The notes: generated from the sequence alone by a model not told the origin. A stretch of DNA of 64,000 bases from Patescibacteria group bacterium (GCA_041650515.1 JBAZLA010000001.1:146710-210709), one strand, 5' to 3'; counted from the stretch's first letter, positions 2,937-51,284 are shown. Numbers and translations: made by a program.

Positions 2937-4586
<1,650 letters not shown>

Positions 4587-5157
4587 TTAAATACTGATAA
4601 GTTGTCCGTACACTAACAACACCAGTTGCTAATGTTTACCCCGTAGAGTCTACGGGTTTAACTCTCTCAGTAGAGTTATAAGAGAAAATAAAGTTGAATA
4701 GATAGGTTACTTCGCACTTACGATTTACTATCACTTTTCGATTGTCAATGTTCCTTTTCTCACCTCTTAATTTTTTATCAAATTAAGAGACGAAAAAACA
4801 GTGCGGGCCAAATCAACGACTTCCACTGGGGAATGTCTACTCAGCCATCACTGTTTTTCCGTCTACTTTTCCCCTGTCAGGGGAAAGTTTAGATGAATTG
4901 TAATAATGTTTTTATGGAACTTTTTATGCCTTGCCTCGCCGGTGCCCTAAAAGGGCATAGGCGGGTTATTTTTAAAGCCCTCTCATTATATACCTTTGCT
5001 AGACCCTGTCAAGGGTGAGACAACAAGCCAATAATGCACAAATTATACCCAGTCAATTTATAACCTAAATAGTAAAATAACCATTGTCCAAACCCTTGAC
5101 TAAATTGATTGTCCGTGTTACAGTTACTAATCCATTTCTCACACCAAGGAGGGCACT

Positions 5158-5463
5158 ATGCCCAAAGAACGACCGAGTGTGTTGGCGTTCATCGCCTATC
5201 TGGCGGAACACCAAACGGAATTTCACCTGGGCACCTGGTACCAGGTAGGCAAACCAGGCGTCGATGCGCGCGAAAATGACCTACTCGTGGCCAACTGCCG
5301 CGACAAAGCCGAAGCGGAACACATAGCCGCCGACCGCGACGGATTCGAGGTCAAAGCCATCGTCGTCCTGGCCATGGACGGCTACGATGCGGCCCTGCAG
5401 CTGCATCTCGCGACCATGACCATGACGCTGATCTACATCGGCGTCGCTGACGAAACCGTCTAA
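5158..5463 (+). CDS. Hypothetical protein, GC-rich (~60% GC) island
   Basis: The 101-aa ORF has the ribosome-binding site aaggagggcactATG and a strong intrinsic terminator, aaagccacccccgtggctttttttt, directly downstream. Its composition is far above the ~45% flanks. Confidence 0.5.
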   Translation: MPKERPSVLAFIAYLAEHQTEFHLGTWYQVGKPGVDARENDLLVANCRDKAEAEHIAADRDGFEVKAIVVLAMDGYDAALQLHLATMTMTLIYIGVADETV

Positions 5464-5475
5464 CACCGGTTACTC

Positions 5476-5510
5476 TACCGCTCAAAGCCACCCCCGTGGC
5501 TTTTTTTTAT
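5476..5510 (+). terminator. Rho-independent terminator
   Basis: The stem AAAGCCAC/GTGGCTTT is followed by a T8 run. Confidence 0.6.
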
Positions 5511-5541
5511 TCACTAATTATTATAACAACATAAACCTAAT

Positions 5542-5697
5542 GGGGGTTTGGGGCGAATACGGCGCGAAGCCGAGCTCCGACCTTTTTTGATTACGCCGAG
5601 GAGCGAGGCGGGTAGAACGAGCTGGGGATGAACAACGAATCGCGCCTGATGAGCCCCAAAGCTTTTTTGGTTACTTTTTTGGCTACAAAAAAGTAAC
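5542..5697 (+). repeat. Structured intergenic repeat family, copy 1 (GGGGTTTGGGG...CCCCAAAGC TTTTTT + GTTACTTTTTTGGNTACAAAAAAGTAAC hairpin)
   Basis: It shares a conserved core with the copies at 13634, 23507, 26186, 51869 and 60850. The core is GGGGTTTGGGGCG-AATACGGCGCGAAGCCGAG...GAGCGAGGCGGGTAGAAC...AACAATGAATCGCGCC...GCCCCAAA. Confidence 0.75.
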
Positions 5698-5722
5698 CTA
5701 CCTGCTAATAAAATAATACCTG

Positions 5723-6238
5723 TTATTTTTTTAACCACGCCGCTAGCGCCTGTTGAGCTAACTCCAACCGATTGGCAAAATCTGGCTCCTTAATCTCAAA
5801 ACTAATATCCTTGGAATAATTATCTAAAATCTGTCGATGATCACCCAGATGTTTATCCAGATATTCCAGCGCCCAGTTATATTGTTTACTTTGGTACAAC
5901 TGGCGAAGAAATTTGGGGGATAGCTCAATATTAATCAAAAAATATTCGTAACCGACTTCGACCAACTTGGCCTTTAATTCTGGCCAAACCCGATCAACAC
6001 TCGCATCATAAATAAAACTATCTCCCTTAGCTAAAATCTCTGCCAAGCGTTGGTCACGAATGACCAAATATTTAGCCTGATCAAAAGCGCCGTGGTCTTC
6101 AATCACTTCGGTCCGCATGATGTCATTACTAAAAATCGGCAAATTCAAATTCCAACTCAAATAATGAGCAATCGGCGTTTTGGAACAACCCGGCACGCCG
6201 GTAAATAAAACGATAAACTTTTTTGATAATATACTCAT
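5723..6238 (-). CDS. P-loop NTPase / predicted kinase (Walker A GVPGCSKT)
   Basis: A 171-aa ORF. The N-terminal FTGVPGCSKTPIAHYL matches the P-loop. Confidence 0.5.
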   Translation of the reverse strand: MSILSKKFIVLFTGVPGCSKTPIAHYLSWNLNLPIFSNDIMRTEVIEDHGAFDQAKYLVIRDQRLAEILAKGDSFIYDASVDRVWPELKAKLVEVGYEYFLINIELSPKFLRQLYQSKQYNWALEYLDKHLGDHRQILDNYSKDISFEIKEPDFANRLELAQQALAAWLKK

Positions 6239-6999: not shown

Positions 7000-7154
7000 A
7001 CGCTATAGTACTTAATACATAGTACACAGTACAGAGTAAATTGACCAGCCAGCAACATTTGGCTGATGTACTCTGTACTCAGTACTGTGTACTATTATAA
7101 AACAAAAACCGTCGGTTTGTCACCAACGGTCTTCGTTTTATTCAATGAACAATT

Positions 7155-30422: not shown

Positions 30423-31622
30423 ATGCTTAAAAAAATATCCGCTATCTTAGTTATCGGCTTTCTAGTTGCCTACCCCGCGATCAGCTTAGCTTCGACCACC
30501 GATGGCACCATTGACTCCACCTACAAATACGCCTGGGGTGAAAACATCGGCTGGCTTAATTTTGGTAACGAAGGCGGTGATATCCATGTCACCGATAACG
30601 GCCTAACCGGCTATGCTTGGAGTGCCAATTATGGCTGGATTAATCTAGATCCAACTACCAGCGGCGTGGCTAATGATGGCGAGGGTGATCTGAGCGGCTA
30701 TGCCTGGGGCGAAAACCTAGGTTGGATCGATTTTGCTAATGTCAGTATTGATGATGACGGTCAATTCACTGGTACAGCTACTGGCACCATCTCTGGCGTA
30801 GTTACCTTTGATTGCACTAATTGCGATGTCCGGACTGACTGGCGACCAGCCAGCACTCGCAGCGGTGGTGGCACCAGTCGAAAATATCCACCGGCTGATA
30901 CATCAATTACTATTAATAATTACGCTGCGACCACTAGCTCAACGAGCGTCACGCTCAATCTAGCCGCCACCAATGCTACCCAGATGATTATTGCTAACTC
31001 CGCCGACTTTGCTGGCGCTAGCTGGGAGACTTTCGCCACTACCAAAAACTGGACGCTGACTGACGGCGATGGCCAAAAAACTGTTTACACTCAGTTTAAA
31101 AATACCTACGGTCAATCGGGAATCGTTTCTGATTCTATCACCCTAGCTACTCCCAGCCAACCAGGCGGCGGGACAACTCCGCCACCAACCCCACCAGCTA
31201 ATAATAGCGAAGAGGGTGATGATCAACAGATTGAAGAACCTCAAACCTACGCCGCCGGCAGCTTGGTTAAAGCACCAGAATTTGCAACGGTTTACTATAT
31301 CGGCGATGATGCTAAGCGCCATATTTTCCCAGACGAACATGTCTACTTTAGCCACTACTCGGACTTTTCTCAAGTCTTAACTATTCCACTAACCGATCTT
31401 CAACAATATCCCTTGGGTGCCAATATGACTTATAAACCAGGCAGTCTGGTTAAACTAACAACTGATCCCAAAGTCTACCGCGTCGATACGCCTAATATCT
31501 TACGCTGGATTGTTAGCGAAGAGGTCTTCTATGCCCTGGGCTATAATTTTAGCCTGGTTCACGATCTGTCTGACGCTTACTGGCTAGACTACACAGTTGG
31601 ACCAGATATCACTAGCTATTAA
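30423..31622 (+). CDS. Secreted cell-surface protein with WG-repeat modules and Pro-rich linker
   Basis: 399 aa with a signal peptide. Three repeats read YAWGENIGWLNFG, YAWSANYGWINLD and YAWGENLGWIDFA. A PPPTPP linker precedes a C-terminal domain. Confidence 0.6.
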   Translation: MLKKISAILVIGFLVAYPAISLASTTDGTIDSTYKYAWGENIGWLNFGNEGGDIHVTDNGLTGYAWSANYGWINLDPTTSGVANDGEGDLSGYAWGENLGWIDFANVSIDDDGQFTGTATGTISGVVTFDCTNCDVRTDWRPASTRSGGGTSRKYPPADTSITINNYAATTSSTSVTLNLAATNATQMIIANSADFAGASWETFATTKNWTLTDGDGQKTVYTQFKNTYGQSGIVSDSITLATPSQPGGGTTPPPTPPANNSEEGDDQQIEEPQTYAAGSLVKAPEFATVYYIGDDAKRHIFPDEHVYFSHYSDFSQVLTIPLTDLQQYPLGANMTYKPGSLVKLTTDPKVYRVDTPNILRWIVSEEVFYALGYNFSLVHDLSDAYWLDYTVGPDITSY

Positions 31623-31639
31623 CCAAATATAAGTAAATC

Positions 31640-31672
31640 TAAAACAGCCCCGTAAAACGGGGCTGTTTTATT
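31640..31672. terminator. Bidirectional rho-independent terminator
   Basis: The stem aaaacagccccgtaaaacggggctgtttt sits between convergent genes. Confidence 0.6.
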
Positions 31673-31687
31673 ACTTCGTCGAAGGTA

Positions 31688-31888
31688 TTAGACGCGGGTA
31701 ACGTTGACCGCGCGAGGACCCTTTTCAGAATCTTCGACGTCAAATGTCACAGCATCACCTTCATGAAGAGAGTTGAATTCGACACCTTGAAGGCTTGAGG
31801 AGTGAAAAAACACATCCTTGCCATCGCCATCATCGGGGGCGATAAAGCCAAAGCCTTTGTCGGTCAGTCTTTTAATCTTTCCGTTCAT
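31688..31888 (-). CDS. cspA: Cold-shock protein (CspA family)
   Basis: MNGKIKRLTDKGFGFIAPDDGDGKDVFFHSSSL carries the RNP1/RNP2 motifs. The start is placed at the internal Met. Confidence 0.85.
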   Translation of the reverse strand: MNGKIKRLTDKGFGFIAPDDGDGKDVFFHSSSLQGVEFNSLHEGDAVTFDVEDSEKGPRAVNVTRV

Positions 31889-32118
31889 AATGAGAAAATA
31901 GTTGATTAACTGCAAAGTGGGTTGTGCCGCAGAAATTCGACTGCTTTCTACTTATGGCAAACTTTTTGCACCAGCAATATACCATATAACCAAAAACAAG
32001 TCAACCACCAACCAGCAACTGAGAAAAATATGACTAAAATGTTATTAATAATATTGACAAGAATTATCAAATGATATACCATAAAGCATCCACACTAAAC
32101 CAGGTTGGGAGATCCAGA

Positions 32119-32331
32119 ATGCCGAAAAAGTATGACATGTGGAAATTGGACGGGGTTGAACAAGAACGAGCTTGGGAAGGATTGACCCAAGCTGAAATTG
32201 ACAGCTACGCTTTGGGATTAGAGATGAGCCCGGATCGGTGGGCCTTAGTAAAAGCAGCCCTGCCGCGTTGTCCCGCTATTACTGAACTGATTGAATTTAT
32301 TCGACCTAAATCAGCCGAAACGGCCGGATAA
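32119..32331 (+). CDS. Hypothetical small protein (70 aa)
   Basis: The ribosome-binding site ggttgggag lies 7 nt before ATG MPKKYDMWKL. GC is moderately elevated. Confidence 0.35.
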   Translation: MPKKYDMWKLDGVEQERAWEGLTQAEIDSYALGLEMSPDRWALVKAALPRCPAITELIEFIRPKSAETAG

Positions 32332-32456
32332 ATTGTTGGATTAATTTTTAGCAACCCGGCTCCAGACCAACCAAAAAGTCTACATCAAATGTAGACCGAG
32401 CCCACCAGTGGAGTGGGATTTTTTTGTTAAAGCTTAAAATAGATTAACAAAAAACA

Positions 32457-33386
32457 CTATCTTAAAATAAAATTAAACAGATACCCAGTAAACATAATCC
32501 CCAAACCAACGACTCCAGCAAAGAGTAAAATTAGCTTTGTCTTCATTATTTTTTTTAAAATCATAAATTCGGGCAAAGACAAAGCGGTTACCGCCATCAT
32601 AAAGGATAGAGCCGTACCCATCGCCACGCCTTTTTCAGTCAAGACGCTCACCAACGGGATAACCCCAGCCGCGTTGGAATAAAGCGGTATGCCAAATAAA
32701 ACCGCCAAGGGTACCGCGTACCACCTGTTGGCGCCAGCATAGCGAGCCAAAAAGTCAGTTGGCACATATCCATGAATAATCGCTCCTAAGCCAACGCCAA
32801 TAATAATATACGGCCAAACTTTTTTTAAAATACTTAGGGTATAACCCCAGGCATAGGTTAATCGATCCGACCAAGATAATTGATTAACAAAAGCAGCACT
32901 ATTATTTCTGGTTTTGAAGATAAAATCAGCTACTAGATGTTCAATACGAAGTTTACCAATAATAATTCCAGAGGCAATAGCAATAATCAGACCGCTGATA
33001 ATATATAATAAAGCGATCTGCCAACCAAACAAACTGAAAAGTAAAACTAAGGCCACCTCATTGATCATTGGCGAGGCCACCAAAAAAGAAAAAGTAACAC
33101 CTAGGGGAATACCGGCTTCGACAAAACCCAAAAACAACGGCACGGCTGAACAAGAACAAAAGGGGGTAATAATGCCTAAAATCGAGGCTAAAATGTTACC
33201 AATATATTCGTTCCTCTTAACCAAGAACTGTCTAATTCTTTCTGGCGGTAAGAAAGAGCGGACAACTGAGATAACAAAAATAATAACTACCAACAGGACA
33301 AAAATCTTGATCGTATCATAGATAAAAAAATCTATACTGGCTATAAAAGCTGGCTGGCTAACTAAATATTGGAAGTAATCTATCAT
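32457..33386 (-). CDS. Predicted permease (DUF318/UPF0718, YraQ-like)
   Basis: 309 aa with about 8 transmembrane helices. It is followed by a thioredoxin-like CXXC partner, as is usual for this family. Confidence 0.55.
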   Translation of the reverse strand: MIDYFQYLVSQPAFIASIDFFIYDTIKIFVLLVVIIFVISVVRSFLPPERIRQFLVKRNEYIGNILASILGIITPFCSCSAVPLFLGFVEAGIPLGVTFSFLVASPMINEVALVLLFSLFGWQIALLYIISGLIIAIASGIIIGKLRIEHLVADFIFKTRNNSAAFVNQLSWSDRLTYAWGYTLSILKKVWPYIIIGVGLGAIIHGYVPTDFLARYAGANRWYAVPLAVLFGIPLYSNAAGVIPLVSVLTEKGVAMGTALSFMMAVTALSLPEFMILKKIMKTKLILLFAGVVGLGIMFTGYLFNFILR

Positions 33387-34310: not shown

Positions 34311-34677
34311 AATTATAAATTTGATACAAAACCACGTTAAGAATTAGCAAAACACAGACCGAGTAAGAAGCAAAATAACCCGGCACTAAGAGCTCCGGGT
34401 GGGTTTTACTTAAGGCGATAGCAACAATACTAACCAAAGCTAATAACAATGAGTAAACAGCAATCGCTACCCGGGCCGCTTGGCCAGCCACCTGGAGATC
34501 GCGCTCGTCAGCTAAAACTTCAGTAACACGCTTTTTAAGCACATAAATCAGGCTAACTGCCGCCACAAAACAGATTATCGGCAAAATATAATCACCACGA
34601 ATAATTGACTGACCAATAATTATAGCCAAAGTCATGGTTAAAGATACTTGGATAATTTTGAATTTCTTCTTAGTCAT
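34297..34677 (-). CDS. Small membrane protein (4 TM)
   Basis: A 126-aa hydrophobic ORF. Confidence 0.4.
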   Translation of the reverse strand: MTKKKFKIIQVSLTMTLAIIIGQSIIRGDYILPIICFVAAVSLIYVLKKRVTEVLADERDLQVAGQAARVAIAVYSLLLALVSIVAIALSKTHPELLVPGYFASYSVCVLLILNVVLYQIYNCGKK

Positions 34678-34815
34678 GATTTTTAAGCTTAAATTGTTAA
34701 GTATTCCTAACTTAATGTTATATTATTCTAACATTACTGTCAAGTGGATAAAAATATCAAAGTTGACAAATAAAGCTACAACCGGCAACCTAGACAATAG
34801 AAAAGGAGGGCTAGA

Positions 34816-35058
34816 ATGACCAAAGATACGGGCCTGCAATGCCGCACCTGCGGCGGCGCTCTCTGGATCCAGATTTCGCCGGAAGACCTGGAATCGCCAG
34901 TGGCCATGGTCCACAACGACAGCTCAGGTGAGCCGTGCCACGGCTCACTCCAGCCGGTAAAGGCCACCTGCCAAAAGTGCAGAGAGACCTTTATCTTGGA
35001 CCGACTGATCCACAATAAAAGAGGTGTCCTTTGCCCTAAATGTCGTCCTACAAAATAG
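34816..35058 (+). CDS. Cys-rich zinc-ribbon protein (3x CxxC), GC-rich island
   Basis: 80 aa with the ribosome-binding site aaaaggagggctagaATG. It contains CRTCGG...C..C...CQKC...CPKC. The terminator cagagccccttacggggctctg is downstream. Confidence 0.5.
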   Translation: MTKDTGLQCRTCGGALWIQISPEDLESPVAMVHNDSSGEPCHGSLQPVKATCQKCRETFILDRLIHNKRGVLCPKCRPTK

Positions 35059-35528
35059 GACCGAGCCATTTAGGGCTTTTTTATTTAAAATAAGCTAAAA
35101 TAACAGAGCCCCTTACGGGGCTCTGTCAGTTCAACGAAGAATCGTTAGAACTTAAGCAGCTTGATCACCGCCAGCAGGGGCGGCGGTTTCCTCACTTGGA
35201 GTCTGAGGAGCAGCGGCTTGATCGCCACCAGCAGGGGCGGCCTGAGTGTTTTCGTCATCAAGATAAATCATTTCTTTGTGGTTATTTATTAGTATAGGTT
35301 TACACTAAACCTTAAAGCTTGTTAAGTATAACAGACTCAACTATTCTGTCAACCCATCAAAGCAAAAAATGTCTAAAATTAAACAAAATTCTAGTCAAAC
35401 AATAGTGATGGCTATTGACCAGATAAGAGAAGATAAGCCCACTACAATAGCTTCCTATTTTTAGCTAGTTGACAGAATATAGTTATGGGTATATATTCAT
35501 AATAGATCTAATAAATAATCTCAAATGT

Positions 35529-35705
35529 ATGCCTAACATGGATGGAACCGGCCCAGCGAGCCAGGGACCCAAAACCGGCGGTCAGCGTGGTAATTGCCCC
35601 GGCGCTGTTCCACGCTCCCGACCTTTTGATGGCCGGGGCGGCGGTCTTGGCCAAGGTCGCGGACGACGCGGTAATGGTCGCGGTCAGAACTTAGGCCAAG
35701 CCTAA
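35529..35705 (+). CDS. DUF5320-like small Gly/Arg-rich protein (MPNMDGTGPASQGPKTGGQRGNCPG...)
   Basis: The N-terminal MxxxDGTGPxxxGPxTGxxxGxC pattern is followed by an RGG-rich tail. The terminator aaacccgcacc...ggtgcgggttt is downstream. Confidence 0.5.
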   Translation: MPNMDGTGPASQGPKTGGQRGNCPGAVPRSRPFDGRGGGLGQGRGRRGNGRGQNLGQA

Positions 35706-35799
35706 AAAAATATAAACCCGCACCTTTTACTCGGTTACCCTAAGGTGCGGGTTTATATCACCAATTTAACAATTAAAGTAATAAATATCAACCAACTAT

Positions 35800-36078
35800 A
35801 TGCCCCGACCAAGAAACTGCCGTCAGATTTTTATCCAACCCAAAACACTATTCTATAAACCTCAAGGTATCCCATTAAGAGACCTGGCAATCGTTGAGCT
35901 TCATCTAGAAGAACTGGAAGCGTTGAGATTAAAAAATTTAGAAAATTTGGAACAAACCGAGGCGGCAGCGCGGATGAATATTTCACAAAGCACCTTTCAA
36001 CGAACCCTCTCTGCTGCTTACAAAAAAATCAGCCTGGCTCTGGTTGAGGGTAAGGCAATCGCTATCCAGAAAGAGTAA
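35800..36078 (+). CDS. DUF134/UPF0251-family putative DNA-binding protein
   Basis: 92 aa. The sequence MPRPRNCRQIFIQPKTLFYKPQGIPLRDLAIVELHLEELEALRLKNLENLEQTEAAARMNISQSTFQRTL matches the family signature MPRPxxCRxI...P....FKP.GIP. Confidence 0.7.
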   Translation: MPRPRNCRQIFIQPKTLFYKPQGIPLRDLAIVELHLEELEALRLKNLENLEQTEAAARMNISQSTFQRTLSAAYKKISLALVEGKAIAIQKE

Positions 36079-36104
36079 AATAATAAATCAATTATTACAA
36101 AAAG

Positions 36105-36551
36105 TTAAAACCACCGTCTGGTTTTGTTTTTATAGTTTAAATATTCTTGGCCAAAAGTTTTGATCATTTTTTCTTCCTCGTAGGGGATAAACATAAAATT
36201 AGTAACCAAGAAAAAAACCACCGGCGTGAGTAACGAAATCAAGTTACCCAAAAAAATAGCTAAACCCAATAAACTAATTACTCCACCCAAATACATCGGA
36301 TTGCGGCTAAAGCGATAAAGATTTTCGATAACTAAACGAGTGGAATCAGCAAAGCTTTCCGGCGTTTGATGTTTTCTAAATAACAACCAAGATCTTATTA
36401 TCAAATAAAAACCGACTATAACTAAAATCAGGCCGATCGAATTGTATGGAAAATTAATTAAATTAGCCGAAGGTATAAAATAAAAAAATAAAACACTAAT
36501 TATCAAACTGAGGTAAAAATAATTGGGCGGGATAGATACAATCTTTTTCAT
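36105..36551 (-). CDS. Isoprenylcysteine carboxyl methyltransferase (ICMT)/phospholipid methyltransferase family membrane protein
   Basis: 148 aa with the RNPMYLG motif and four transmembrane helices. Confidence 0.65.
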   Translation of the reverse strand: MKKIVSIPPNYFYLSLIISVLFFYFIPSANLINFPYNSIGLILVIVGFYLIIRSWLLFRKHQTPESFADSTRLVIENLYRFSRNPMYLGGVISLLGLAIFLGNLISLLTPVVFFLVTNFMFIPYEEEKMIKTFGQEYLNYKNKTRRWF

Positions 36552-47527: not shown

Positions 47528-47580
47528 TACTAGTACTCAGTACCCAGTCCATAGTAATCTAGTTTCCCACTTCAATCATA

Positions 47581-47615
47581 ACACCCCGGTTATTTCAAAA
47601 ACTGGGGTGTTTGTT
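47581..47615 (+). terminator. Rho-independent terminator of pnp
   Basis: The stem acaccccggttatttcaaaaactggggtgt is followed by ttgtt. Confidence 0.55.
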
Positions 47616-47702
47616 ATCTGTGTACTATGTACTAGGTACTAGGTACTAACATTATAAAAAAAGCCACCCGTAGGTGACTAGCTGCTGTAGGCAAGACTTT
47701 AC

Positions 47703-48113
47703 TCACGCCGCGGGCAGCTTGATCTCGGCTCGGACGATCATCTCCAGGATTTGCCGGCCGATCGCCTGGTCGCCCTCGATGACCACCCTCTGGGCAGCCA
47801 ACGACATCGCAACCTGCCTGGTCGCCACTTCCGCCTCGCGCAACGGCTGCTCACGGCAGAAGCTGAGGAAGGTGGCCACATCCAGCTTAATCATCGCCCA
47901 AGTGGCTTCTCCATCGGTTACCGCCGTGGGCACAACGGCCTGCAACACTCGGGGCATCGACCCGGTCAGGTCAATCTCCCACTGACGATCAGGCCAAAAC
48001 CGCATGGTAATGTAGCTCTGGGGCAACCCGTGATCACCCTGCTGAAGCAATTGCTTCAATTGTTCAAAAGCCATCCCAATCGCCGCATCAGCCCGATCTT
48101 TAGCATGTGACAT
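47703..48113 (-). CDS. SCP2-like lipid-binding domain protein, GC-rich
   Basis: Start is at MSHAKDRAD after the ribosome-binding site ggagga. The C-terminus reads VVIEGDQAIGRQILEMI, an SCP2-type signature. The terminator gccacccgtaggtgac plus T7 lies downstream on the minus strand. Confidence 0.45.
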   Translation of the reverse strand: MSHAKDRADAAIGMAFEQLKQLLQQGDHGLPQSYITMRFWPDRQWEIDLTGSMPRVLQAVVPTAVTDGEATWAMIKLDVATFLSFCREQPLREAEVATRQVAMSLAAQRVVIEGDQAIGRQILEMIVRAEIKLPAA

Positions 48114-48248
48114 TGGTCCTCCTGGTGGTACTACCCTAATGACATACAAAACAACTTTATCCTGCACAGTAACAAACCAACCTAACGAAGTCAAGATAAA
48201 AAAATAAAAAAATCCCCGAAGGGATTGTGCTGCCGGCGATGAGTAAAA

Positions 48249-48626
48249 TCAACCCAACGGCAGAAGCTGAGCCTGGCTCAGCCATTCCAACAGCTGCCGG
48301 CCGGCCTTCTGATTACCCCGAATCTCAATCCAACCGGTTGCGAGCGCCGCCTCAATTTCTCTCGCACTGAGGTGTCCGCGAACCAAGTTGAGAAAACCCC
48401 CAGATGTCATATTGATCACAGTGACATCCGGTGATATCGGGGGAATGGCAAAACGCTGACTTACCGGGATCGCGACACCAGATGTATCGACGTCCCACCA
48501 CAGGGTAACCGAACCAGCCAGCAGATGAAACTCAAACCTTTTTCGAGGCAAAGTAACATTGCCCACTTGTAGCAACTTTCCCAGTGCCCCGAAAACACCA
48601 TTCACCAAGTCACGAAGCTCGGGCAT
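48249..48626 (-). CDS. SCP2-like lipid-binding domain protein (paralog of preceding), GC-rich
   Basis: 125 aa. The C-terminus reads WIEIRGNQKAGRQLLEWLSQ. Confidence 0.45.
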   Translation of the reverse strand: MPELRDLVNGVFGALGKLLQVGNVTLPRKRFEFHLLAGSVTLWWDVDTSGVAIPVSQRFAIPPISPDVTVINMTSGGFLNLVRGHLSAREIEAALATGWIEIRGNQKAGRQLLEWLSQAQLLPLG

Positions 48627-48751
48627 AATAACCTCCTTGTTTTTTGTATCCGAAACTAGTCTATCACTTTACTAGAATATTTAATTACAGTCAATAAAAT
48701 AAAAAAGTAACACTTACCCTATCAAATCACCCATATGCTATAATTAAACCA

Positions 48752-50158
48752 ATGAAAATAAATCTTAATTGGTCTAAATTGTTCCCGCCTGATCTTAGCC
48801 GAACCAAGCTCGGAATTTTTCTAATTCTTCTGATACTAGCTTTAGTTCTCGGTGGGGTTTTATATTGGCAGCACCAAATTAACCAGCAGGATAACTTAAT
48901 CAAACTCGTACCAGCCAACGCCAATCTTTACCTTCACTTTAATTACCAACCAAACCAGCTAACTGCCACCACCCAACTACTCTTTAATAATCTTTTTACT
49001 GACTTAGATGATCACTTTTTAGCCAATTCCCCGGCTAAGCTTTCCGCTAATTTACAAAGCTACTTAAACCGCGAGCTTGGACTAATTGCCACCCCAACTG
49101 GCCACTACCTGCTGATTGCAAAAATAAAAAATGGCCGAGAGCTAAAAGCCCAATATCCAGAATTAACTATTTTTAAAAACCATTATTTAATATTGGGCCA
49201 AGACTCGGCTAATAGTCTAGCCAGCGACCAAAACCAAAGCCTCGGTCAAGCTCAGCCTTGGCCAGAAAAATATTCCGCTGGCTTACTTCAAGCTTACTTT
49301 ACCACCCAATTTATAACCGGTTCTCTAACCGACCAACCAGCCAAAGACCTGCTCAGATACTATTTCGAACAAAACCAACAACAATATTTCCAATTAGCGC
49401 TAGATAACAACCTTAACCTGGAATTAGCAGCCAATGCCAACCTGGGTGAGCTCTCACCACTGTTTTTGACCAACCTCAACCAGAATACTATTTTAAGTCT
49501 AGCTCTACCCAGCCTTAGCACCTCAGTTAGTCAACTGGGTAGCTGGCTACAAAATTTTAACCCCAATTTGGCATCAACGTTGCTCCAAACCGGCCAAAGC
49601 TATCTCCAAGATTACAGAATTGATCTACCATCCTTATTCTCTTTAGCTAATCATCCAGCCCAGATAGTGGTTTTGCCAGATCAAAAGTATATTCTGATTC
49701 TAGAACAGACCACCCTGGATGAGCTGGAGATTCTAGATAACTTACTTAAGCAAGCGACTGCCCGCCGTTTTCCGCTAAGAATAGCCAAAAAACTACCAGA
49801 CGGGACGCCAATCACCGAGCTGGTAGCTGACCCAGCTAAATTTCAACTAATCGCCGAAGACGTAGCTGGCCAAACTATTAAGATAATTAAAGACGGTTCT
49901 GAGATCTGGGAATTGGCCTATTTTAGCAATAACAATCGTTTAATCATCAGCAACTCACTAACCGACCTAAGAGCTCTAGCTAGTCAACAAGCCACTATTA
50001 ACCTTAAAACGCTTTGCCCGCGCCTACCAGCTCATCAATTATTCCTCCAACCAGCTTACTGGTTGCAAAACCAACCAATTTTGTCTAAATATAGCCAAAT
50101 TTTACCTAATTTAACGTTAAATATTCAGGGTCAGATGCTACTCGGCTGCTTCTTCTAA
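48752..50158 (+). CDS. Hypothetical membrane-anchored protein (N-terminal TM, Q/N/L-rich)
   Basis: A 468-aa ORF. Confidence 0.4.
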   Translation: MKINLNWSKLFPPDLSRTKLGIFLILLILALVLGGVLYWQHQINQQDNLIKLVPANANLYLHFNYQPNQLTATTQLLFNNLFTDLDDHFLANSPAKLSANLQSYLNRELGLIATPTGHYLLIAKIKNGRELKAQYPELTIFKNHYLILGQDSANSLASDQNQSLGQAQPWPEKYSAGLLQAYFTTQFITGSLTDQPAKDLLRYYFEQNQQQYFQLALDNNLNLELAANANLGELSPLFLTNLNQNTILSLALPSLSTSVSQLGSWLQNFNPNLASTLLQTGQSYLQDYRIDLPSLFSLANHPAQIVVLPDQKYILILEQTTLDELEILDNLLKQATARRFPLRIAKKLPDGTPITELVADPAKFQLIAEDVAGQTIKIIKDGSEIWELAYFSNNNRLIISNSLTDLRALASQQATINLKTLCPRLPAHQLFLQPAYWLQNQPILSKYSQILPNLTLNIQGQMLLGCFF

Positions 50159-50283
50159 CTAACAGCTGTGGACAAGTTGTTAACTTTCTGATTTTAAATT
50201 GTTATTTTTCTTTGTTAATAAAAAAGTAATCCACAGTTTTTTTAGCTAAATTTAAACAAAAAATATTAAATGTTGACATAGTT

Positions 50284-50312
50284 GATAGGGTGTCAAATTT
50301 ATGATATACTAA
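50284..50312 (+). promoter_or_regulatory. Sigma70-like promoter (TTGATA-17-TATACT)
   Basis: The sequence is ttgatagggtgtcaaatttatgatatact. Confidence 0.4.
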
Positions 50313-50319
50313 TAGTAGA

Positions 50320-50740
50320 TAACTTTTGTTCTTTCTAATCTTTTAGGGAAATGAACCGAATTGAGTTTGTTATTGGATGATTCGACAACAAATCAATCCT
50401 GAGTCCGCCTATGGCAGACGAAGGATCTAGTTGGGTTTATTTCTCTCTCACCCACTCGGTCTTTTTGGAGGCCGCAACCCTCCGCTAAAACAAAAAACAA
50501 AAACGGGCTACACCCTAAACCAGTCACTAGCCCAGACCAGGTGAGTGAGCGACGCGTAACTCAGTTGCAAGTAACGCCCAACGACCTAGAGGTTAAGTTC
50601 TATCCTAGCCCTATAAAAAAGGGCTTAGATAGCGGACCTGTGGGTCCTGTGGGGCGTCTAAAGTGCCTACTATTTATAAAATATCTCATCCAGAGTGGTG
50701 AGGGGGCGCTTCGGCGCCCCCTCTTTTTTTACTTTAAATT
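50320..50740 (+). ncRNA. Candidate ncRNA (~420 nt) bounded by promoter and strong terminator; class unknown
   Basis: No convincing ORF. The listed 81-aa ORF reads through the terminator. A strong terminator, gagggggcgcttcggcgccccctc plus T7, lies at 50700-50737. Internal hairpins are present, including atcctgagtccgcc...ggcagacgaaggat. Confidence 0.3.
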
Positions 50741-50924
50741 AGTACATAGTACTCAGCACCCAGTACACAGAAAAATATTAATCTAATAGCCTAACTAGTT
50801 AATTTACTTCCTAAAGTACTGGGTACTAGGTACTGGGTACTAGTTAATAATTGACAAAACCAATAAATTTGAGATAATGGGACAAACATTATCGAGGAGG
50901 GCTTTTTATTTAGGAATAATTGCT

Positions 50925-51284
50925 ATGGATAAGAAAACATTAGAAACAATCAAACAAGATCTGCTTAATCGCCGCAATCAAATTGCCAAAGAACTAAAAG
51001 AAACTACCGGCGGTGATAATAAAGCTATCGATGCCAACTTCCCTCAGTTTGGTGATAAAGAGGATGAAAACGCCAGCGAAGTGGCCGCTTATAGCGACAA
51101 CCTTTCGATTGAATTTACTCTACAAAAAACCCTAGAAGATATTGATAAAACCCTAGAAAGCATCGACAAGGGCACTTATGGTGTCTGCCGCTATTGCAAA
51201 CAACCCATTGATGAGAAGCGTCTCTTAGCCCGACCCACGTCGTCAGCTTGTGTCGGCTGCAAGAATCGCCTAAGCAAAAGTTAA
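50925..51284 (+). CDS. DksA/TraR-family C4 zinc-finger protein
   Basis: The C-terminus carries the finger CRYCKQPI...CVGCK. Start is at the internal MDKKTLE. Confidence 0.7.
   Translation: MDKKTLETIKQDLLNRRNQIAKELKETTGGDNKAIDANFPQFGDKEDENASEVAAYSDNLSIEFTLQKTLEDIDKTLESIDKGTYGVCRYCKQPIDEKRLLARPTSSACVGCKNRLSKS

Follow-up and report, generated by a model that had tools for sequence, protein, structure and literature searches.

A predicted lineage-specific structured non-coding RNA encoded upstream of dksA in Parcubacteria-type CPR bacteria

The RNA gene described here lies in a recurrent gene order that reads rpsO, a NYN-domain gene, pnp, a gene for a 445–496 aa protein without Pfam domains, the RNA, a dksA-like gene, lspA, a comM-like gene and 23S_rRNA_IVP. 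It lies within a 0.77–0.93 kb gap between the 445–496 aa protein and the dksA-like gene, and the PNPase gene is located two genes upstream. In the window, which is the whole 64,000-nt stretch of Patescibacteria group bacterium DNA that was analysed, the gene on the upstream side (48752–50158) encodes a 468-aa protein with an N-terminal membrane helix that has no Pfam domain and no match in a word-indexed protein search. A no-Pfam gene of 445–496 aa is found at the same position in relatives, so the 468-aa protein looks like a fast-evolving lineage-specific protein. The DksA/TraR zinc-finger protein encoded downstream, by the dksA/ylyA-like gene, is 100% identical to a Patescibacteria MAG protein and shares at most 66% identity with its relatives. 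Two minus-strand ORFs without a Pfam match (47703–48194 and 48249–48626, within 47650–48650) are located between pnp and the 468-aa protein, beside a heptamer array, and have a GC content of 55–64% compared with about 43% in the surrounding DNA. Loci L089 and L090 have nothing at this position, and the ORF pair is probably an acquired island.

The transcription unit in the gap upstream of dksA is delimited by a near-consensus promoter and a strong terminator that bound about 415 nt.

50282–50310, plus strand: sigma-70-type promoter, −35 element TTGATA (50282–50287), 17-nt spacer, −10 element TATACT (50305–50310)
50700–50730, plus strand: intrinsic terminator, 10-bp G+C-rich stem and UUCG loop, then U7

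Both signals had been recorded in a preliminary description of the locus as a TTGATA-17-TATACT promoter and a very strong terminator with a T7 run, and both are present. The promoter has an extended −10 element (TG at 50302–50303), which would place the transcription start of the window RNA at about 50316–50318, and the terminator reads GAGGGGGCGC-TTCG-GCGCCCCCTC (50700–50723) followed by T7 (50724–50730). A comparative alignment of the gaps, one of the checks proposed with the preliminary description, shows that the promoter, the internal blocks and the terminator are all kept in the syntenic loci of other genomes, with TTGACA..TGnTATAAT as the family-wide promoter form. The same description held that about 420 nt contain no plausible ORF, and this agrees with 50 homologous units in which no ORF is conserved on either strand and the longest ORF per unit has a median length of 47 aa. 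The sole sizeable ORF in the window unit (81 aa, 50541–50786) crosses the terminator, as had been stated. The plus strand of the window unit folds with z = −6.6 relative to shuffled sequences, and together with its own promoter and terminator and its conservation in relatives this supports the earlier proposal of a discrete non-coding transcription unit. Of 50 loci, 42 have a promoter-like site in the spacer that separates the RNA terminator from dksA, compared with 13% of shuffled spacers; the site is located a median of 124 nt before dksA, and the window site (50851–50878) matches at 11 of 12 positions (TTGACA-16-GATAAT). The position of this site argues that the RNA is an independent transcription unit, and a dksA gene with its own promoter argues that the RNA is not the dksA leader.

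The window also contains GTACTNN inverted-repeat arrays with a 7-nt period at 7022–7092, 47533–47646 and 50742–50840, and GTACTNNGTAC has 14 exact matches compared with 0.1 expected. The third array follows the RNA terminator and precedes the dksA promoter. In close relatives this position is likewise occupied by an array but with other heptamers, GGACTCN in L001 and CACAGAT in L007. Two of the window arrays (7013–7094 and 50747–50842) drew spurious microRNA-like Rfam matches.

Candidate protein-binding signals are found upstream of the promoter and in the 5′ leader.

50167–50175, plus strand: DnaA-box-like site, TGTGGACAA, one mismatch to the reverse complement of TTATCCACA
50227–50235, minus strand: second DnaA-box-like site in inverted orientation, TAATCCACA; L001 and L007 have TTATCCCCA at the same place
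50328–50338, plus strand: boxA-like element in the 5′ leader, GTTCTTTCTAA, two mismatches to the family consensus

DnaA boxes with at most one mismatch to TTATCCACA were counted between −330 and −40 from the RNA start in 50 loci. They occur upstream of the promoter in 49 of these loci, at a density of 8.0 per kb compared with 0.29 per kb elsewhere, and most are perfect TGTGGATAA boxes with two or three copies in most loci. A replication origin at these boxes was considered and rejected for the window, where GC skew is negative across all 64 kb; the co-orientation of the genes on either side of the boxes in the window, L089 and L090 also opposes an origin. A palindrome (GCTAATATTAGC-like; TAGCTAAATTTAAAC in the window, within 50160–50260) is located about 35 nt upstream of the −35 element in many of the loci from L011 to L088, resembles the AGCUAAA/UUUGGCU arms of hairpin P1 (below) and is likely an operator for some factor. 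In one subclade (L034, L042, L050, L053, L065 and L076), a tRNA-Cys gene is found on the same strand immediately before the DnaA boxes and the RNA gene.

The boxA-like element has a family consensus of GWWCWTTDAAA at +10 to +25. An exact match is present in 9 of 50 leaders and a match with at most one mismatch in 25 of 50, which represents enrichments of about 95-fold and 18-fold, respectively, relative to the remainder of the loci. The published consensus GYTCTTTAANA is gamma-proteobacterial (PMC5725501). The 16S leader of the window genome has a consensus promoter and a boxB-like hairpin followed by a boxA, GAACATTGACA. This 16S rRNA gene is on the minus strand within 2937–5010; its length of 1654 nt compared with the 1533-nt model indicates that it carries insertions, and it is followed by tRNA-Ile, tRNA-Phe and tRNA-Pro without a 23S gene, so the rRNA genes are unlinked.

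The distribution of the RNA was determined by scanning a genome collection with the DksA-like protein as the query, which returned 80 loci in records named Falkow-, Uhr-, Buchanan- and Magasanikbacteria and Parcubacteria group. Most of these loci have the TTGACA..TGnTATAAT promoter and a unit of shared blocks 250–450 nt upstream of dksA; the median unit length in the family is 358 nt. An nhmmer search with a single sequence recovered the nearest relative only and a four-sequence profile gave weak matches only, and the family loci were gathered by anchor-based extraction and covariance models in place of nhmmer. The covariance model was restricted to the central domain enclosed by helix P2 (below) and searched against 82 sources, consisting of the window and the related loci, with a cutoff of E < 0.01. 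It matches 61 of the 82 sources, in each case on the dksA (plus) strand and upstream of dksA, and the window holds one copy. A model built without the window genome and its three closest relatives still recovers 50439–50552 with 37.2 bits and E = 4e-6. The unit is thus not confined to the genome in which it was noticed and is kept in about 60 species. A search of viral contigs with the pattern AAAACAAAAAYAAAA..GGTRRRRR gave chance-level loci only, with model scores of at most 26.7 bits, and a literature search for a CPR non-coding RNA of this kind found nothing relevant.

Alignment and covariation establish a conserved predicted fold for the family that consists of hairpin P1, a long-range helix P2 around hairpin P3, an A-rich junction strand and hairpin P4, and then hairpin P5.

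50345–50446, plus strand: P1 hairpin, AGGGAAAU... pairing with ...AUUUCUCU; compensatory changes in 4 of 4 basal pairs and in 12 of the 14 pairs above
50447–50462, plus strand: 5′ strand of P2, CUCACCCACUCGGUCU, from alignment and covariation
50467–50483, plus strand: P3 hairpin, GGAGG-CCGCAAC-CCUCC; loop GCAAC (50474–50478) in the predicted kissing interaction
50487–50503, plus strand: A-rich single-stranded tract, AAAACAAAAAACAAAAA, almost invariant and predicted to be unpaired with a probability of 0.97 in the window
50505–50533, plus strand: P4 hairpin, GGGCUA...UAGCCC, conserved in position and variable in sequence, from folding and alignment
50534–50549, plus strand: 3′ strand of P2, AGACCAGGUGAGUGAG; the conserved GGU pairs with ACU (A-U, C-G, U.G)
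50554–50577, plus strand: P5 hairpin; loop GUUGC (50564–50568) predicted to pair with the P3 loop
50578–50699, plus strand: 3′ domain with hairpins at 50600–50632 and 50634–50647, then a G-poor, AU-rich stretch before the terminator

The long-range helix P2 has 16 bp, and P5 follows directly after it. P1 and P2 were drawn on a plain MAFFT alignment of 42 sequences, and the control was to slide the pairing partners by 1–3 columns. In this alignment 86.9% of the P1 and P2 cells are paired compared with 45–58% in the slid controls, and compensatory changes are found in 30 of 34 pairs. The observed values were reached in 0 of 500 shuffles, a procedure that leaves the phylogenetic signal in. For P2, 89.4% of cells are paired in 60 model-aligned sequences compared with 45–57% when slid, and the helix is predicted independently by RNAalifold. 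The P2 C-G pair is invariant (60 of 60) and the adjacent U.G pair is present in 50 of 60 sequences; a U.G pair would be a C.A mismatch on the opposite strand, which supports transcription of the plus strand. The apical part of P1 (~50365–50426, about 60 nt) is an insertion that is seen only in the window genome and is absent from all relatives. The 3′ domain has a conserved architecture and a poorly alignable sequence. RNAalifold gave no consensus structure for it on the MAFFT alignment, and the domain is therefore described qualitatively only.

The loops of P3 and P5 are predicted to pair with each other in a kissing interaction that is maintained across the family. The two loops are complementary in almost every sequence, though their sequences differ between lineages. 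Examples are GCUGGC/GUCAGC, GUUCAC/GUGAAC, ACCGAC/GUCGGU, GCCGAU/AUCGGC, CCUGGAG/CUUCAGG, CUUGAAG/CUUCAAG and AUUCC/GGAAU, and inspection of the alignments by eye gave about 20 distinct compensatory variants. The interaction was tested with loops defined by their flanking stems alone and a run defined as at least 5 complementary nt. Such runs are present in 71% of P3/P5 loop pairs from the same sequence compared with 16% of pairs combined from sequences that differ in their P3 loops, a difference that was reached in 0 of 5000 permutations, which leave the phylogenetic signal in. For tertiary contacts, duplex energies without constraints and complementarity tests over whole regions gave similar values for self and cross pairs and had no power, leaving the loop-restricted test as the informative one. 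A kiss between P3 and P5 would place P2 alongside a P5–kiss–P3 stack, and we infer a compact fold with this geometry.

The tract between P3 and P4 is almost invariant in its family form, AAAACAAAAAYAAAA, and reads as AAN triplets, (AAN)5–6. The segment AAC-AAA-AAY-AAA comprises at least 4 consecutive A-R-N triplets, and the mean predicted unpaired probability of the tract in the family is 0.85 compared with 0.37 for whole RNAs. It is counted 56 times on the plus (gene) strand and 9 times on the minus strand in 482 kb, and the GC-rich genome L025 keeps it in a slightly shortened form, ACAAAAACAAAA. A sister subfamily of the Magasanikbacteria type keeps the boxA, the P2 core with its A-U, C-G and U.G pairs and the 3′ terminator module. 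The central A-rich tract is absent from this subfamily, and the tract may therefore not be a universal functional site. The variant RNA was seen at the same locus, about 100–530 nt upstream of dksA, in L031, L043, L058, L067, L071, L072, L079 and L082. Its boxA (TGCTCTTTTCACAA), P2 core (CCGACUUC / GCGGUUGG) and 3′ terminator module are those of the main type, and in place of the central AAAACAAAAAC tract it has an A-rich stretch 5′ of P2.

Rfam 15 at gathering thresholds identified a 16S rRNA and five tRNAs only in the 64-kb window, and in 20 related loci it gave no match to the unit and no tmRNA, RNase P, SRP or 6S RNA. When the threshold was relaxed to E ≤ 10, the search of 50100–50950 returned terminator look-alikes and hairpin noise only, with no tmRNA, RNase P, SRP or 6S RNA, and the result for L013 was the same; a CrcZ match at this level covered the terminator only. 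For SRP RNA, which has a conserved domain IV (helix 8) motif, no model matched the window unit or L013 at E ≤ 10. Among 30 window proteins searched with Pfam, none was identified as SmpB, RnpA, Hfq, Crc, DnaA or a Nus factor. A T-box remnant was considered because the gene order in Bacillus runs ileS, ylyA, lspA, and was rejected for having no T-box model match and no specifier or T-box sequence. Elsewhere in the window, a sub-threshold cspA thermoregulator match (31640–31993, minus strand; 49 bits compared with a gathering score of 78) probably reflects a gene for a cold-shock protein and its 5′ UTR. The stretches 34677–36105, 31622–32457 and 4590–5723 are free of ORFs of 110 aa or more; at least the last of them contains a smaller GC-rich ORF, which has a ribosome-binding site and a terminator, plus the 16S promoter and leader. 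One of the other two may be the "first" promoter-to-terminator unit that is implied by the title of the preliminary description, which called the present one the second.

Three known classes of stable RNA were weighed as identities for the transcript. A divergent or permuted tmRNA, which the preliminary description had left as an option, has a similar size, and in tmRNAs an A-rich stretch precedes the tag reading frame. The description also pointed to a likeness between GGAUGAUUCGAC and the tmRNA 5′ element; the string is present (GGATGATTCGACAAC, 50375–50389), but it sits inside the P1-tip insertion that no relative has. A second internal segment mentioned there, GCAAGTAACGCCCAACGAC, is likewise present (50567–50585), and GCAAGTAACGCCC makes up the 3′ side of hairpin P5. 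Permuted forms are within the scope of ARAGORN, which found no tmRNA in either the window or the 37 related loci searched, and the standard, alpha, beta and cyano tmRNA covariance models had no match at E ≤ 10 in the window unit or L013. The RNA has no T-arm, CCA end or acceptor pairing that would make up a tRNA-like domain, its 3′ end is the terminator hairpin and its 5′ end is the boxA leader, and no tag ORF is conserved after the A-rich tract or elsewhere. The earlier judgment that a standard tmRNA is not supported is upheld by these results, which also make a divergent or permuted form barely credible. A highly divergent RNase P RNA fits in size (350–420 nt), and no RNase P RNA is detected elsewhere in the 64-kb window. 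However, the window is only part of a 287-kb contig. The P4 pseudoknot of RNase P RNA is formed by two conserved strands, CR-I GGAAAGUCC and CR-V ACAGAA..GGCUUA, and inspection of the family alignments found no such conserved blocks. The Infernal check suggested for RNase P returned no RNaseP_bact_a or RNaseP_bact_b match at E ≤ 10 in the window unit or L013, and the sole long-range loop–loop pairing is hypervariable in sequence. The diverged RNase P RNAs of CPR bacteria do fall below Rfam thresholds, but Lui et al. (2021) recovered RF00010-like forms with low scores and conserved features in all 35 complete CPR genomes (PMC8172020). The window RNA shows neither RF00010 recovery nor the conserved RNase P features, and this identity is highly improbable. 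An RNA polymerase-binding regulator of the 6S/Ms1 type, or an rRNA-operon-derived RNA acting on or in the ribosome, would account for the stable RNA-type expression signals (strong promoter and boxA), for the adjoining DksA-family gene and for the location within a block of RNA and ribosome metabolism genes (S15, NYN, PNPase). The adjacency to DksA is part of a long conserved gene block and so carries little weight. No 6S or rRNA model matches, and the covariation-supported fold is branched with a median length of 358 nt, unlike the ~180-nt rod with a large central bubble of 6S RNA, making this explanation quite improbable.

Two regulatory explanations draw on the position and the exposed tract of the RNA. 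A cis-acting leader or riboswitch that governs dksA-like/lspA by terminator read-through is consistent with the co-directional dksA-lspA genes that directly follow the RNA in every locus, with the aptamer-like compact fold with its kissing loop, and with several subfamilies in which the terminator 3′ strand has, as judged by eye, two alternative pairing partners upstream that are copies of one sequence. We consider a leader unlikely in view of the strong terminator and the promoter-like site that follows it before dksA, the boxA and strong promoter that the RNA has of its own, a length of 358 nt that is much longer than typical riboswitches, and the lack of a match to any known riboswitch model. 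A regulatory RNA that acts by base pairing between its A-rich tract and U-rich targets agrees with the predicted exposure of the conserved tract and with an intrinsic terminator and U tail like those of many bacterial regulatory RNAs. This function is unlikely as well: A/U pairing would be weak and lack specificity in AT-rich genomes, such an elaborate tertiary fold is not typical of regulatory RNAs that pair through a seed, and no recurrent complementary site TTTTRTTTTTGTTTT is found in the window or in 482 kb of loci, where the 9 reverse-strand matches are scattered.

The comparative evidence establishes a conserved RNA family that has no Rfam 15 match and is predicted to be structured, non-coding and independently transcribed. 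The best explanation, with a probability of roughly 0.6, is that the locus is the gene for an undescribed, lineage-specific, stable structured RNA of Parcubacteria-type CPR bacteria that would act as a scaffold in trans. DnaA bound at the upstream boxes would modulate the RNA promoter, and the boxA in the nascent leader would recruit NusB/NusE as in rRNA operons. Nus recruitment could protect the untranslated transcript from Rho and assist its folding. The folded RNA would then act in trans by exposing its A-rich strand for a partner to bind, most likely a protein with affinity for A-rich single-stranded RNA such as S1, a KH domain protein or one that resembles the distal face of Hfq. The exposure and conservation of the strand suggest that it is the partner-binding site. 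More speculatively, the partner may be DnaA itself. The RNA would then be a DnaA-controlled regulator that feeds back on chromosome replication as a decoy for the replication initiator: DnaA at the conserved upstream boxes would drive RNA synthesis, and the rigid (AAN)5–6 strand would imitate the DnaA-trio DNA that is single-stranded in an unwound origin and would bind or titrate DnaA. This decoy function is a long shot; if true, it would represent RNA control of a replication initiator in organisms with minimal regulatory repertoires. An allied and equally speculative view would make the family the RNA core of a ribonucleoprotein that is specific to CPR bacteria and produced by rRNA-type (Nus/boxA) transcription.

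The CPR/Patescibacteria, with their tiny genomes and almost no cultured members, account for a large part of bacterial diversity. A 0.36-kb RNA that is found at one locus across several candidate phyla and has a covariation-supported tertiary fold is unlikely to be dispensable in such genomes, and it would join the short list of large structured bacterial RNAs as a new class. Its gene pairs rRNA-type boxA signals with a cluster of DnaA boxes that is among the most consistent away from an origin, which provides testable links to Nus-factor biology and to replication control. The covariance-model seed is ready for the annotation of CPR genomes, in which the locus is now a blank intergenic region.

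The RNA shares some features with known systems and differs from each in others. It resembles tmRNA in its length and in having an A-rich single strand, and a GAUUCGAC-like string is present in the window genome only. The likeness to this string sits in the non-conserved insertion, and the family RNA differs from tmRNA in having no tRNA-like domain, tag ORF or model match. Bacterial RNase P RNA has a similar length, a long-range helix and a loop–loop contact, whereas the family RNA lacks the P4, CR-I and CR-V nucleotides and has no match even far below threshold, which distinguishes it from RNase P RNA including the diverged CPR forms (PMC8172020). Like the boxA-dependent transcripts exemplified by rRNA leaders and the boxA upstream of CRISPR arrays, it has a strong promoter and a boxA-like element about 10–25 nt into an untranslated transcript. 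It differs from rRNA and crRNA precursors in being a self-contained structured RNA of 0.36 kb with an intrinsic terminator at its end, and its Nus binding is a prediction. The distal face of one Hfq hexamer is filled by 15–18 nt of ARN-type triplets, and the family RNA shares an exposed 15–18 nt AAN run and a terminator U tail with CrcZ/CrcY and the (ARN)n class II sRNAs; it differs from them in having a single tract set in a rigid fold. OLE, the raiA motif, ROOL and GOLLD are lineage-restricted RNAs of several hundred nt with their own promoters and terminators, extensive covariation and tertiary contacts, and a function that cannot be read from homology, and the window family resembles them in each of these respects. 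None of their Rfam models matches it, and it is set apart from them by the P2-enclosed junction, the P3–P5 kiss, the A-rich tract, its CPR host range and a promoter context that combines DnaA boxes with boxA.
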